DNA of 64,000 bases from NCBI GenBank assembly GCA_947475245.1, contig CANJLW010000001.1, positions 36,025 to 100,024 of the forward strand, given 5' to 3'. This stretch comes from Acetobacteraceae bacterium. Its GTDB lineage: Bacteria; Pseudomonadota; Alphaproteobacteria; Acetobacterales; Acetobacteraceae. Position 1 is the first letter of the stretch; each line of letters opens with the position of its first letter. Of the stretch, positions 4,989 to 9,660 are shown piece by piece. A model generated the notes under the pieces. It was not told the DNA's origin, ran no database searches, and worked only from the letters and a program-made list of their open reading frames with translations. A program made the translations under genes and the position numbers.

Positions 4989-5891
4989 ATGAGCACGTCC
5001 CTGCGCCAACGCGGGATGTTCGCCTTCATCTGCTTTGTCTGGGGCACGACCTGGCTGGGCATGAAGATCGGCATCGCCGCCGTGCCGCCCGGAGTCTTCG
5101 CCGGCCTGCGGTGGACCGTCTGCGGCGTCATCCTGCTGACCCTGCTGCGCCTGCGCGGGCACCGCGTGCTGCCGCCGCCCCGTCTGCTGCCCCGGCTGGT
5201 CTTCGTGTCGGTGTTCCTGATCACGCTGAACCAGGTGATCCAACTCTACGGCCTGAAATACATCACCGCCGGCCTCGCCGCCGTCATCAGTTCCGCCCTT
5301 ACCCCCGTCGCCCTGCTCGGCTTTGCCGTGCTGCTGGGGCAGGAACGCTTTACCTGGCGACAGGTCGGCGCAATCGCGCTGGGCATCGCCGGAGTCCTGA
5401 CCCTGTTCGGCCCCGCCGCCCTGGCCGGCACGCTGGACCTGTGGGAACTGGTCGGTGCCGGCGGAGTCACCATCGGATGCCTGTGCTATTCCTTCGGATC
5501 GGTGCTGACCCGACCGATGATGCGCACCATCGCCCCGGTGCAACTGGCCGGGCTGACGGGGCTGATCGGCGGGTCGATCCTGCTGAGCGCCTCTCTGCTG
5601 CTGGAACCCGGCGGGTGGGACGCACTGCGCCTGCACTGGGGCTGGTCGGCCTGGCTGGCCTGGCTGTATTTGCTGATCCCGGGATCGCTGATCTCCACCA
5701 CCATGTATTTCCTGCTGGTGCGCGACTGGGGCGCGAGCAAGCCCGGCACCTACGCGTTCATTTCTCCGGTGATCGCGGTCATCGTCGGCTGTTCCCTGTT
5801 CGGAGAAAAACTCCACTGGCCCGACGCGCTCGGCATGGCGCTGATGCTGTCCGGCGCGGGGCTGGCGCTGCGGCGCGGCCCGCAATCTTGA
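4989..5891 (+). CDS. EamA/DMT family transporter
   Basis: ORF 4584..5891 trimmed to MSTSLRQRGMFAFICFVWGTTW. About 10 hydrophobic segments in two repeats; WGTTW and YAFISPVIAV motifs. Confidence 0.88.
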   Translation: MSTSLRQRGMFAFICFVWGTTWLGMKIGIAAVPPGVFAGLRWTVCGVILLTLLRLRGHRVLPPPRLLPRLVFVSVFLITLNQVIQLYGLKYITAGLAAVISSALTPVALLGFAVLLGQERFTWRQVGAIALGIAGVLTLFGPAALAGTLDLWELVGAGGVTIGCLCYSFGSVLTRPMMRTIAPVQLAGLTGLIGGSILLSASLLLEPGGWDALRLHWGWSAWLAWLYLLIPGSLISTTMYFLLVRDWGASKPGTYAFISPVIAVIVGCSLFGEKLHWPDALGMALMLSGAGLALRRGPQS

Positions 5892-5904
5892 TGTGAAACA
5901 GTGT

Positions 5905-6080
5905 GGGTATCTTCGCGGCATTTCACTGGCCGAGAGAGCTGATTTTTACCACAAAGGACACCGAGGACCACAAAGGATGCACAAAGGTGTCTGAGGCGGC
6001 GTAACTCTTTGTGCCTCCTCTGTGGTCCTCGGTGTCCTCTGTGGTAAAAAATGCGATCGCGCGACCGCTCGGACGTCACC
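5905..6080. repeat. 176-bp intergenic repeat, copy 1, with long imperfect inverted repeat (arms 5942-5986 and 6007-6052)
   Basis: Ungapped match to 7086-7261 at offset 1181, 26 mismatches in 176 nt by manual count. Left arm atttttaccacaaaggacaccgaggaccacaaaggatgcacaaag matches the reverse complement of the right arm with 3 substitutions. Confidence 0.92.
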
Positions 6081-6184
6081 TGCCGGTCTCCGGCTGAACG
6101 GTAACGGGAATAAATGCGCATTTGACCCGTCCGACGGGGGCGCGTAGGGCACGCGTGCCGGCGAGCAAGGGATTGGGGGACGGA

Positions 6185-7030
6185 ATGGCGGTTGAACAGA
6201 ACGATCTGCTTCGATATGCGAATATGCAGAAATCGGTCTATAATCCAGTCGGTAAGGACAATCCGGAGGAGATCGTCGGGTGGTACGGCTACCACGAGAA
6301 TGTACCGTATGAAACGAACCTGCTGTATCGCTACGGGGATATCAGGCGCCCCATCTTTCCCGATTTTCAGAAGCTGAGGGCATTCGACATCGGATGCGGC
6401 GAAGGGCGGATGATCCGCCGCATGCAGCGGATTTTCGGCCAGGTGGACGGCGCCGATATCAGCGAGGCCATGGTGGAACACGCCCGCGCGCGCAGCCCGA
6501 ACAGTGAGATTTATGTCTCCTCGGGGCTGGATGCGGGTCAGGCACCGTCGGACACGTATGATTTTGCCTATTGCACGATTTCACTTCAGCATGTCTGCGT
6601 GCACGCCACGCGGGACGCGATTCTCGACGATATCGTCCGTATTCTGAAGCCGGACGGCAAGATGACGCTGCAAATGCTATTTTCGAAGTATTACCCTTTC
6701 CACCACCCGCGGCGGATCAGGCAACTTGGCCGATGGGGCCTGCAACTGTTCAATAAGGACAGTAACAACGGCACCTGGTTTCAAAACAAAACCGACGCGC
6801 AAGGCACCAACGGGCGCTGCGACGTGGTGATCGGCACCAACGAACTGACCGCCGTCCGCGCCGATCTGCTGAAGAAATTCGGCGTTGTCGAGTTCTGGTT
6901 CTACGATATCTCCATCGATCGCGCCGGCGCGCGTTCGTTGCCGGAGAACCATCTCAACAGTCATATCGACGATCAATACTGGGGAACGCATTTCGTCTTC
7001 ATCCACTGCGCGGAACCGCGCAAGGGCTGA
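6185..7030 (+). CDS. Class I SAM-dependent methyltransferase (Methyltransf_11/25-like)
   Basis: Motif I FDIGCGEGR, motif II VDGADISEAMV, later YDFAYCTISLQH and RILKPDGK. GC is visibly lower than the flanks. Confidence 0.85.
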   Translation: MAVEQNDLLRYANMQKSVYNPVGKDNPEEIVGWYGYHENVPYETNLLYRYGDIRRPIFPDFQKLRAFDIGCGEGRMIRRMQRIFGQVDGADISEAMVEHARARSPNSEIYVSSGLDAGQAPSDTYDFAYCTISLQHVCVHATRDAILDDIVRILKPDGKMTLQMLFSKYYPFHHPRRIRQLGRWGLQLFNKDSNNGTWFQNKTDAQGTNGRCDVVIGTNELTAVRADLLKKFGVVEFWFYDISIDRAGARSLPENHLNSHIDDQYWGTHFVFIHCAEPRKG

Positions 7031-7037
7031 GTCGCGG

Positions 7038-7057
7038 TCAGGGGGCGATCCCCCTGA
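7038..7057 (+). terminator. Perfect 8-bp GC hairpin just after the methyltransferase stop (possible weak terminator)
   Basis: TCAGGGGG-CGAT-CCCCCTGA; only a short TTG tail follows. Confidence 0.45.
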
Positions 7058-7085
7058 TTGCCGTCATGATCGGTCGAGACAGTTC

Positions 7086-7261
7086 GGGTATCCTGGCGGC
7101 GTTTCAGTGGTCGAGAGGCCGGATTTTTACCACGGAGGACACGGAGAACCACAAAGGATGCACAAAGGTGCCTGAGGAGGCGTCAATCTTTGTGCCTCCT
7201 TTGTGGTCCTTTGTGTCCTTTGTGGTAAAAAATGCGGTCTCGCAACCGGTTGGACGTGACC
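7086..7261. repeat. 176-bp intergenic repeat, copy 2, with long imperfect inverted repeat (about 7123-7233)
   Basis: Direct repeat of 5905-6080 with the same hairpin architecture. Confidence 0.92.
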
Positions 7262-7381
7262 CGTGCCCCCCGTCAACGCGCCGAACGAACACCCGCACGG
7301 CATTCCCTTCCCCCCGATGCCGCCGTATGCTGCGCTTGCTGCCCAACCGACGGGGAAGGGGCAAGGGAGAACCGATCGCTC

Positions 7382-8782
7382 GTGGCGCTGAAACCGACGG
7401 GATTCTGGAGCTATTCCAGCACTGACGAGGCTGCCTCCAATGGCCGGTTAAGCCGGTTGCGGCAGCAGATCGAACGCGAGTTACAGCTACAAGTCGGTCG
7501 GCCGAAGGTTGAAATCTTCCACGATATCACCTCCATTCCGCCTGGCACGGATTGGAACGACGTGATCACGGCGGCGCTCGAAAACTCCTCCTTCTTCATT
7601 CCAATCATTACCCCCGCTTTCCTGCACAGCGAGGTTTGCGCGTGGGAGGTAAAGACGTTCCGCGACATCATGAAAAAGCGTGGTCGTCACGACCTGATAG
7701 TCCCTATCTATTATTTGGATGTGGATGCACACGGGGTCGAACGCCGCCACGAATGGCACGATCCGACGATCCTGGATTTTTTGTTGACAAAGCACTGGTT
7801 GGATTTTCGTGCGTTGCGCGTCCGGGATCCGTCGACCGAGCCGGTGACCGAGTGGGTCGCCAAGACCGGGAAGGCAATCTATGCGACGCTCTCTAAGCCA
7901 CCCTCTAAACCGTTCACGACGTCGCCCGAGCAGAATACCCAGCAAGACCATCCGACTCCGCAGCCTTCGGTGTCCGTCAAACCCGTCCGCGCCCCCGGCA
8001 CCCGCTTCCGCGACCAGCCCCACTTTCCCGAAATGGTCGTCATCTCCCCCGGTCGCTTCATCATGGGTAGCGACAAATCCGGCCCCCACGCCGAACCGGG
8101 ACACAACAGCGACGAATCCCCCGCCCACGAAGTCGGCATCGCCGCCGCTTTCGCGCTCGGCCGCCTGCCGGTCACAAGGGGCGAATACGCCGCCTTCGTC
8201 AAGGCAACCGGCTACGATGCGGGCTCGGACTGGCAAGAACCCGACTTCCCCCAGACCGACGATCACCCCGTCGTGGGCGTGTCGTGGATCGATGCGGAGG
8301 CGTTTATCGATTGGCTGAACGCAGACCTTGCCGATAAACCCTACCGCCTGCCGACGGAGGCGGAATGGGAATACGCCGCGCGAGGGCAGACCGTGCTCGG
8401 CCCCCGGACGGAATTCGCGACCGGCGCGCGGATCGAACCCAACCAGGCGCAATACCGTTGGTCCGAAAGCTACGCCGGGTCGAAAACCCGATCCAAGGGC
8501 GCGCCCGGCACGGCGGTCGCGGGCAGCTTCCCGGGCAATGCGTTCGGCCTGCGCGATATGCACGGCAACGTCTGGGAATGGACGCAGGATGCCTATCGGG
8601 ACTCCTACAACGGCGCCCCGGACGACGGCAGCGCCATGGAGTTCACCCATTTCGAGTATCGCGTCCTGCGGGGCGGGTCCTGGATCTACAAGCCAAGGGA
8701 CCTGCGTTCTGCAACCCGCATCGAGGGTAAGCCTTCCGTCCGTGCCCCCTGGCTCGGCGTTCGGGTTGCGAGGACGCTGTAA
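7382..8782 (+). CDS. TIR-domain + FGE-sulfatase (SUMF1 / C-type lectin fold) fusion protein
   Basis: Probable GTG start at 7382 after GGAGA, in frame with ORF 7232..8782. TIR N-terminus: GFWSYSSTD, IFHDITSIPPGTDW, FFIPIITPAFLHSEVCAWEV. A Pro/Gln/Thr/Ser linker follows, then FGE motifs FPEMVVISPGRFIMGS, DESPAHEV, HPVVGVSWIDA, YRLPTEAEWEYAAR, NAFGLRDMHGNVWEW and RVLRGGSW. Confidence 0.88.
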   Translation: MALKPTGFWSYSSTDEAASNGRLSRLRQQIERELQLQVGRPKVEIFHDITSIPPGTDWNDVITAALENSSFFIPIITPAFLHSEVCAWEVKTFRDIMKKRGRHDLIVPIYYLDVDAHGVERRHEWHDPTILDFLLTKHWLDFRALRVRDPSTEPVTEWVAKTGKAIYATLSKPPSKPFTTSPEQNTQQDHPTPQPSVSVKPVRAPGTRFRDQPHFPEMVVISPGRFIMGSDKSGPHAEPGHNSDESPAHEVGIAAAFALGRLPVTRGEYAAFVKATGYDAGSDWQEPDFPQTDDHPVVGVSWIDAEAFIDWLNADLADKPYRLPTEAEWEYAARGQTVLGPRTEFATGARIEPNQAQYRWSESYAGSKTRSKGAPGTAVAGSFPGNAFGLRDMHGNVWEWTQDAYRDSYNGAPDDGSAMEFTHFEYRVLRGGSWIYKPRDLRSATRIEGKPSVRAPWLGVRVARTL

Positions 8783-8839
8783 CCTCTTGATTTTTTCAAT
8801 TTTTTACCTCTTGGGGTGGTCTGGAGGGGCGCTTGCCCC
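8660..8839 (+). other. Candidate DGR variable region with downstream pyrimidine tract and GC hairpin
   Basis: The C-terminus RVLRGGSW-IYK-P-R-D-LRSA-T-R-IEGK-P-SV-R-APWL-G-V-RVARTL* fits the DGR CLec VR scaffold. It is followed by cctctt-T-rich-cctctt (8783-8812) and the hairpin GGGGC-GCTT-GCCCC (8826-8839). No template repeat or RT in the window. Confidence 0.5.
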
Positions 8840-8961
8840 GCGGCCGTGCCGCCGTTCCGGCCGGTAACGCCGAGCTTGGCGCGCGGGAAGGGTGTTTCGT
8901 ATAATCGACGGTCCTGATCCACCCCGCCCGCCCGGTCAAAGCCGGACTTTGTTTTGCCGCG

Positions 8962-9660
8962 AAAGAACCCCTTGCACCCTGAACAACACCCCGCCGCCCG
9001 GTGCCGCAAGCCGACGCTTTTCGATGCCGGGAGTGACACGGTGTCGGCGCGGCGTTTCACGAAGGCGTTGGATCGACGCGCGGCAGGCCACCCGAACCTC
9101 CGCCGGACCCGCGCGGACAAGCAATCCGACGGCAACACCCTATGCGCCGTGAGGATGCCTCCCGCGGTCCGGCAGGCTCCGCGAAACGCCCACGCAAACA
9201 ATGTCGCCCAACCCGCCCCCGCGCGGGCCGCGTCGAATGGAAATCCAACAGCAAAGACCCCATGCAACCTGAACAACGCCCCACCGCCCGGTGCCGCCCT
9301 TATGATGCACGGAGTTTCACGAAGTCATCGGATCGACGCGCGGCAGGCCACCCGAACCTCCGCCGGACCCGCGCGGAAAAGCAGTCCGACGGCAACACCC
9401 TATGCGCCGTGAGGATGCCTCCCGCGGTCCGGCAGGCTCCGCGAACCTCCCACGCAAACACTGTCGCCCAACCCGCCCCCGCCGAGGCCGCGTGGAATGG
9501 AAATCCGACGCAAAGACCCCATGCACCCTGAACAACGCCCCGCCGCCCGCCGCCGCTTACCGCGATGGCGCGGCGTTTCACAAAGGCGTCGGATCGCCCC
9601 GCCGCCATCGAGAACCGGAAATCCGGGGGAATTACCCCATACACCCTGAGCAATCCCCGC
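8962..9660. repeat. Degenerate tandem repeat: units 8962-9252, 9253-9511, partial 9512-about 9630, fourth motif about 9631-9660
   Basis: Each unit opens with a variant of aaagaccccatgcaccctgaacaac. Segments 9071-9250 and 9331-9510 differ at 11 of 180 positions (manual count). Confidence 0.9.

Follow-up and report, generated by a model that had tools for sequence, protein, structure and literature searches.

The subject of this analysis is a pair of direct repeats, each holding a long hairpin, that bracket a methyltransferase gene in a 64,000-nt stretch of an Acetobacteraceae genome (assembly GCA_947475245.1, contig CANJLW010000001.1, positions 36,025 to 100,024 of the forward strand; hereafter the window). 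The assembly, a metagenome-assembled genome (MAG) of freshwater (lake) origin, comprises 5.23 Mb in 89 contigs and is 99% complete. The segment of interest runs in the order EamA-family transporter gene, hairpin, methyltransferase gene, hairpin, a gene fusing a TIR domain to an FGE-sulfatase-like domain (TIR-FGE) and a further repeat array, as listed here in window coordinates:

4989..5891, plus strand: EamA-family transporter gene (Pfam EamA; gene call in same-species MAGs), the last genus-conserved gene ahead of the variable segment
5895..6080, plus strand: repeat copy 1, with left flank 5895-5942, arm 5943-5986, loop 5987-6006, arm 6007-6050 and right flank 6051-6080
5943..6050, no strand assigned: hairpin core of copy 1, 108 nt, with units ACCAC-AAAGGA-CAC-CGAGGA-CCAC-AAAGGA-TGCAC-AAAG plus complement and T5/A6 caps; the outer three units match the cross-phylum pattern described below
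6185..7030, plus strand: class I S-adenosylmethionine (SAM)-dependent methyltransferase gene (Pfam Methyltransf_11/25/12/23); public gene calls start at 6224
7076..7261, plus strand: repeat copy 2, with left arm 7124-7167, loop 7168-7187 and right arm 7188-7231
7382..8782, plus strand: TIR domain fused to an FGE-sulfatase-like domain (Pfam TIR_2 and FGE-sulfatase; gene call of 466 amino acids)
8950..9660, no strand assigned: about 2.5 tandem units of 260 bp in a second arm dialect, GGAGTTTCACGAAG.../...CTCCGCGAAAC

The preliminary description of this DNA had reported two gapless 176-bp direct repeats at an offset of 1181. Both were recovered, and the repeat was found to extend 10 nt farther leftward, so that positions 5895-6080 and 7076-7261 form one direct-repeat family of 186 nt (84% identity, ungapped, spacing 1181 bp). 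Gapped alignment of the two copies placed solid homology only between approximately 5886 and 6083; similarity outside this range was weak and GC-driven. The copies differ at 29 positions, the longest identical run being 23 nt, and the differences are mostly transitions, located mostly at two 'free' positions in each repeat unit. Within each copy lies a near-perfect 108-nt hairpin consisting of two 44-nt arms and a 20-nt loop, with T5 ahead and A6 behind. Ungapped complementarity of the arms is 93% in copy 1 and 86% in copy 2, where the palindrome continues weakly for about 14 nt past the A/T runs. Folding energies of -63 to -79 kcal/mol correspond to z scores of -11.5 to -14.3 relative to dinucleotide shuffles, and none of 200 shuffles folded as well; the better-folding strand is minus for copy 1 and plus for copy 2. 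The arms are built as arrays, each with four phased units of 9-11 nt (CAC-RR-AGG / CCT-YY-GTG). The pyrimidine arm reads CTTTGTGCAT-CCTYYGTGGT-YCTYNGTGT-CCTYYGTGGT-AAAAA, the second arm is its complement, and the arm grammar can be written as a T-run, ACCAC and then (RR-AGG-(A)-CAC)n. Flanks of 48 nt on the left and 30 nt on the right are common to the two window copies only.

Small GC-rich stem-loops were seen just outside the big hairpin, at 6053-6068, 7108-7121 and 7235-7248; with the T-run of the element that follows each of them in the inward direction, they make up sites resembling intrinsic terminators and directed toward the interior of the element; copy 2 has one on either side and copy 1 has one on its right. 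A local duplication of a gene leader was rejected as the origin of the repeats because homology is confined to approximately 5886-6083 and the genes downstream of the two copies are unrelated. Likeness to DnaA, MraZ and PhoB boxes and to CsrA sites was also considered and dropped, the fit being poor and the elements dispersed without orientation.

Conservation of the arms was examined by scanning one genome per prokaryote species with a degenerate pattern, CCTNNGTGKTYCTNNGYGTYCTNNGTGGTRA (∼50 bits), that represents the outer three units. At least 117 stretches in at least 13 bacterial phyla matched, against a chance expectation of about 0.001 by our own arithmetic. Carriers were found among the Acidobacteriota, Planctomycetota, Chloroflexota, Clostridia, Chlamydiota, Kiritimatiellota, Gemmatimonadota, Bacteroidota, Spirochaetota, Hydrogenedentes and Armatimonadota, in the Geobacter/Syntrophobacteraceae group, and among the Alpha-, Beta- and Gammaproteobacteria; the pattern was also present on nine IMG/VR viral contigs. 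Arms are found paired in hairpins, singly and in tandem arrays. Copies within a single Clostridia MAG have lineage-specific flanks in common beyond the hairpin, as the window copies do, and the hairpin is therefore best described as a conserved core within local flanks. All-against-all clustering of the open reading frames (ORFs) at the 117 listed loci revealed no recurrent family beside the arms, the largest cluster being an unannotated one drawn from 15 loci, and no recurrent transposase was detected among the neighbours of these loci. Membership of the window element in this family of tandem-unit hairpins is very likely. In an uncultured Bacteroidales MAG (L102), same-family hairpins lie head to tail in two clusters (1633-2611 and 6336-7249) whose arms recur at multiples of about 82 nt, in arrays far denser than those of the window's genome.

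In other genomes, arms of this kind enclose or flank genes of the family PF13366 (PDDEXK_3, or GxxExxY). The proteins encoded beside arms are PD-(D/E)XK proteins of about 125-135 amino acids, in cassettes of about 0.5 kb. A PF13366 ORF was present in two of the 117 listed pattern loci and bracketed by arms in both: at one locus (L055) the gene lies inside the loop of a single hairpin, and at the other (L077) it lies between two complete direct-repeat hairpins, which is the layout of the hairpins and methyltransferase gene in the window. PF13366 genes were found in 10 of 12 arm-bearing genomes from several phyla, in 1 of 12 alphaproteobacterial genomes outside the genus of the present genome and in 3 of 14 controls (one-sided Fisher test of the association with arms, ∼3e-4, by our arithmetic and on unmatched samples). 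About 10 of the 12 PF13366 genes examined in arm-bearing genomes are accompanied by arms of tandem units that follow this grammar; the arms are inverted and bracket the gene in about 8 of the 12, and the remaining arm-carrying genes sit among complete hairpins. Since arms enclose or flank the gene elsewhere, the window copies are taken to be gene-less derivatives of the cassette family, similar to miniature inverted-repeat transposable elements (MITEs). Within the genus, PF13366 genes number from 0 to 14 per genome and are patchily distributed, many of them fragments or interrupted by stop codons, and their cassettes follow the same grammar in many arm dialects. Three PF13366 genes are present in the genome studied here (contig 55 at 2638, contig 18 at 20473 and contig 3 at 348156); two adjoin other arm dialects and none adjoins the dialect of the window. 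Many GxxExxY genes of the genus are preceded by TTAA-N7-TTAAC (L156, L200-L204, L210 and L214), which we take to be the CtrA-box consensus and which hints at cell-cycle control of these genes; the GxxExxY genes of this genome on contig 18 near 20440 and contig 55 near 2600 are preceded by a single TTAACC only.

Window-type elements in this genome amount to about five hairpins and about four solo arms. Tandem-unit hairpins of any dialect were sought by eye in a list of 91 hairpins, as a periodicity filter misses arms in which 9- and 10-nt units alternate. The preliminary description had linked the element to accessory genes, and a catalogue of neighbours revealed no exclusive bias of that kind: the further copies adjoin genes for LpxB, ATP synthase subunit B, a fatty-acid desaturase, an acyl-CoA dehydrogenase, a solute-binding protein and a hydrolase as well as a TIR-NACHT-TPR gene. 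Clear copies were found in only 1 of 24 genomes of the genus (G004), adjoining Fic/Doc and RelA-SpoT genes and a LOG-family gene. With core and accessory genes mixed among its neighbours, the element is therefore scattered, and its leaning toward conflict-type genes is mild at most. The TIR-NACHT(NPHP3_N)-TPR gene, of 863 amino acids, occupies positions 165-3038 of contig 5; the window-type hairpin about 106 nt past its end has a loop of 57-68 nt, compared with 20 nt in the window copies. A third arm dialect (...ACGCGGATGAAGA.GATCAGCGCGGATCGCGG...) forms long arrays of alternately inverted 50-60-nt arms on contig 3 (346802-348497), contig 37 (26754-28175), contig 50 (14319-15158) and contig 74 (772-1771), and one of these arrays ends directly at a GxxExxY gene (contig 3, 348156-348497). 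The second-dialect array at 8950-9660 of the window sits between TIR-FGE and an ABC transporter gene, resembles arrays on contig 15 at 68687-69627 and varies in copy number among same-species MAGs by exactly one unit.

The genes around the repeats were compared with those of related genomes. Orthologues of the EamA gene occur in 17 genomes of the genus with 71-77% amino-acid identity, and in the eight downstream regions compared, DNA homology stops at approximately 5872-5885, at the EamA stop codon, the genes beyond being different. Synteny within the genus thus ends at this codon, and for that reason no classical empty site was found. The methyltransferase and TIR-FGE genes are compositionally foreign: GC content is 56.5% in the former (73% at third codon positions, GC3) and 62.5% in the latter (GC3 77%), compared with 67.9% in EamA (GC3 88%) and 64.6% in the genome. 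Together with the lack of a methyltransferase orthologue among 24 genomes of the same genus, these values bear out the earlier remark that each repeat lies upstream of a foreign-looking gene. TIR-FGE is probably a conflict or defence-type protein. Homologues of the methyltransferase with 50-71% identity, from Rhizomicrobium, Phenylobacterium and metagenomes, are lone genes in four unrelated contexts, and no hairpins were found near them in any of the four; the hairpin and the methyltransferase therefore do not form a unit that is conserved and travels together. Four homologues with 56-65% identity (L166, L168, L170 and L172) are lone plus-strand genes amid minus-strand housekeeping genes in differing neighbourhoods, which suggests that this methyltransferase family is mobile in its own right.

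Variation at the locus was then followed across strains. Several runs and other MAGs carry the identical locus, and same-species MAGs are 100% identical over 5000-9185 and therefore uninformative on turnover of the element. A strain from run X14 (∼98% identical) keeps the layout of hairpin, methyltransferase gene and hairpin. Contigs from four runs of different studies (X13, X15, X16 and X17) have EamA genes 96.6-99% identical to that of the window and differ at the locus. In X13 and X15, 28 extra nt separate the end of EamA (5897) from an element that shares 92% identity with copy 2. A comparable loose end occurs in X17 after 5895, and in X16 EamA is followed directly by a hairpin with a mixture of copy-1 and copy-2 variants. 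The A-run of the hairpin (7232 or 6051) is followed in both X15 and X16 by ATTACTTCCAAC (12 nt) and then by a match to the window from 6900 onward, a join that falls inside the 3′ end of the methyltransferase ORF. About 850 nt, comprising the right flank and the leader as well as 85% of the methyltransferase gene from its 5′ end, are therefore missing or replaced in these two strains, and probably also in X13. The breakpoint in the variant strains lies exactly at the outer edge of the hairpin. The hairpin is 1561 nt from the FGE region in X16, compared with 1941 nt in the window, and that region is about 88% identical; the 3′ (FGE) part of TIR-FGE is 88-92% identical in X15 and X16, next to an EamA gene at 96.6-99%, and no TIR part was found at 82% identity or above in runs X13, X15 and X17. 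As judged from these sequences, the pattern is suggestive of a conflict-type gene that has undergone allele replacement or diverges fast. The altered spacing in X16 and the divergence of the FGE part therefore mark the locus as a hot spot of rearrangement. The excision of 1181 bp by recombination between the copies, as envisaged in the preliminary description, left no trace, since neither the deletion product nor a circle junction was present in contigs of 10 runs, contigs being prone to drop rare variants.

Whether pairing or the units themselves are conserved was assessed in 34 distinct hairpins. Among the pairs formed by the outer 31 nt of the arms, 80.5% follow Watson-Crick rules and 19.5% are non-Watson-Crick without compensation. 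The mismatches are strand-symmetric (77 G.T vs 68 A.C, the latter being G.T on the other strand), with a concentration at the free 'NN' positions. What is constrained is therefore the units of each arm rather than the pairing of one RNA strand, as would be expected if a protein recognises the DNA. Among 126 arms, no bias of orientation or position relative to genes was found, arms being about as frequent behind stop codons as ahead of start codons; genes were represented in this test by naive longest ORFs, a rough measure in high-GC DNA. These results bear on a regulatory alternative, according to which the helically phased arrays bind a conserved DNA-binding protein, or the hairpin and its stem-loops serve as terminator or insulator, the whole module having been duplicated upstream of two co-regulated genes. 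The phasing of units at 9-11 bp and the conservation by arm rather than by pairing would suit such a module, as would the location of both copies 134-150 nt upstream of start codons in the same orientation and the GC-rich stem-loops that, with the T-run, face inward at all but one of the copies' four sides. The unbiased placement of the 126 arms speaks against it, however, and so do the failure to find a sigma-70-like promoter, the occurrence of copies between unrelated genes in 13 phyla and the gene-containing forms, which point to a selfish cassette; a cis-regulatory role is improbable. A structured RNA, whose transcribed hairpin would be an RNase III processing site or a small RNA mimicking Shine-Dalgarno or CsrA-binding sites through its AGGA repeats, could explain the very stable fold (z of about -12 to -14), the repeated A(N)GGA motifs in the purine arm with CCUC motifs in the other, and the position of the inner unit region directly upstream of the nuclease start codon in full-length cassettes. 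An Rfam search at E<=1 nevertheless returned only miRNA models, at 25-34 bits compared with gathering scores of 70-91, and the opposite strand preferences of the two copies in folding, the balance of G.U and A.C among the 34 hairpins with their uncompensated pairs, and the missing orientation bias of the arms all make an RNA of this kind quite improbable. No RNA sequencing run was found to contain the stretch.

The element-gene-element-gene order, all in one orientation, had also led to the proposal of cassette accretion through a palindromic site. An integron-like system of this type, with the hairpins as attC-analogue folded single-strand sites of a site-specific recombinase and the methyltransferase and TIR-FGE genes as captured cassettes, would be in keeping with the foreign composition of both genes, with the gene between two complete hairpins at L077 and with strain variation at the hairpin edge. 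Of the accretion proposal, the foreign-gene junctions and the differing strain alleles stand, whereas the hairpin and methyltransferase were not found to travel together in the four homologue contexts. The attC-like folded site itself did not survive scrutiny. The best match to IntI (TIGR02249) in the genome reaches 73 bits, below the cut-off of 265, and lies on another contig; tyrosine recombinases were found on other contigs only. The ends of the element read TTTTTACCAC...GTGGTAAAAA, in agreement with the earlier remark that RYYYAAC/GTTRRRY ends are lacking, and the near-perfect stems have neither R''/R' core sites nor extrahelical bases. In addition, methyltransferase homologues occur elsewhere without hairpins, other copies of the element lie beside core genes, arm mismatches are strand-symmetric and the 1181-bp junctions are missing from the contigs examined. 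We consider an integron-like origin very unlikely. The suggestion of a palindromic MITE/REPIN-like unit fared better in one respect, in that a MITE/REP-like family of hairpins and solo arms does exist; inverted pairs alongside solo arms recall REPINs and singlets of repetitive extragenic palindromic (REP) sequences, and the element is small, non-coding and dispersed. The proposed link to a REP-associated tyrosine transposase (RAYT) failed, because the 99%-complete genome contains no match to the RAYT/Y1 family (PF01797), the same search being positive in 6 of 14 control genomes. An element of the REPIN/RAYT type, or a classical transposase-driven MITE, is also at odds with the presence of about nine sites rather than hundreds, with arms that are unit arrays rather than short palindromic REPs, with a partner gene that encodes, where present, the small PD-(D/E)XK protein rather than a transposase, and with the lack of a recurrent transposase near the 117 listed loci; such an origin is extremely unlikely.

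In our preferred reading, the two repeats are probably old copies of a palindromic element that is non-autonomous and belongs to the GxxExxY-cassette family; they are located in the spacers of a foreign, strain-variable segment. The copies are the gene-less, loop-only form of the cassette, standing to it as a MITE stands to its transposon, and their creation or movement would have been the work, in trans, of a nuclease of the GxxExxY type with specificity for the unit arrays. The bracketing of the methyltransferase gene would then reflect a build-up of elements at junctions that tolerate insertion. Once in place, the copies could act as fragile sites or as short portable homology (up to the 23-nt identical run), favouring gain and loss of adjacent genes, and they would not serve as sites of a dedicated cassette recombinase. 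The parts of this scheme differ in standing: that GxxExxY nucleases mobilise the element is a tentative proposition, and that the hairpins actively mediate gene turnover at the locus is doubtful.

Several observations count against the scheme. Neither a target-site duplication nor a precise empty site could be defined. A full-length cassette with the window dialect (CACAAAGGA / CACCGAGGA) was found neither in this genome nor among the 30 genus cassettes examined, and the window copies may be orphans. A nuclease gene lies right beside the arms in only 2 of the 117 listed loci, and literature searches on GxxExxY/PF13366 yielded only passing mentions, with no functional study of nuclease activity, binding or mobility. 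The hairpin model alone does not account for the 48-nt left and 30-nt right flanks that only the two window copies share. The strain variants were recovered on metagenome contigs that are short and of low depth; they display replacement rather than clean insertion or excision, and as evidence they are suggestive.

An extension of the preferred reading, which must be considered improbable, would be a selfish system of pan-bacterial reach that operates without any transposase. In it, the unit arrays would be recognised by a GxxExxY nuclease, which would cut at the outer edge of the hairpin, and repair would copy the element and delete, replace or import adjacent genes, with hairpin-delimited segments being exchanged in the manner of cassettes by a nuclease and not an integrase. 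The idea fits because the breakpoint in related strains lies at the A-run and because of the layout at L077, a fit that falls short of proof. What is unusual about the family is an arm sequence that is near-identical in at least 13 phyla, combined with gene-carrying relatives that encode GxxExxY (PF13366), a PD-(D/E)XK family without known function. If the nuclease mobilises the arrays, this would constitute a new way for selfish DNA to spread and would provide a function for a very large orphan protein family. The hairpins also mark a hot spot where TIR-FGE and orphan genes vary among near-identical lake strains, which bears on the turnover of such islets, and they serve as a caution in annotation that a gene between two hairpins need not be an integron cassette. 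The family as a whole is of wider interest; the particular locus is ordinary.

Comparison with described elements places the family among small mobile repeats. A literature search by sequence string yielded no match, and the only published trace of the element that was found is a table entry for Geobacter bemidjiensis, in which multicopy intergenic 'Nonanucleotide repeats' are catalogued as TTT[WCCTCTGTGR0-1Y0-1]nGTGAG (Aklujkar et al. 2010, PMC2996986, Table S6). Their unit, CCTCTGTG, and their end grammar are the same as those of the window element, whose dialect differs in having four units with CTYYGTG variants; the entry is a catalogue item that makes no connection with a hairpin, with GxxExxY genes or with occurrence in further phyla. 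The grouping as a tandem-unit hairpin / GxxExxY cassette family is informal and our own, with no description of it in the literature searched.

Integron attC sites and their cassettes are likewise imperfect palindromes between promoter-less accessory genes in one orientation, but the window element has 44-bp stems, lacks an IntI, core sites and extrahelical bases, and has no link to its cargo gene elsewhere. The 23S rRNA intervening sequences of the Leptospira/Coxiella type consist of a short ORF within long inverted repeats that form an extended stem, whereas the window copies lie outside rRNA and contain no ORF. REPs and REPINs also combine hairpin-forming inverted pairs with single arms, and their movement in trans is ascribed to a single-copy domesticated RAYT (Y1 HUH) transposase; in contrast, the genome studied here has no RAYT, and its elements differ in low copy number, arm architecture and associated gene. 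MITEs with autonomous partners, such as Correia/NEMIS of Neisseria, are small, non-coding and intergenic, end in inverted repeats and have longer gene-carrying relatives with the same ends, all of which applies to the window element as well. Its partner, however, encodes a PD-(D/E)XK nuclease-fold protein rather than a transposase, its inverted repeats are arrays of 9-11-nt units, a target-site duplication is not established, and we know of no described MITE whose arm sequence is conserved across at least 13 phyla. MITEs and REPINs are the nearest described kinds, and the element is set apart from both by its partner gene, its arms built of unit arrays and its conservation across phyla.

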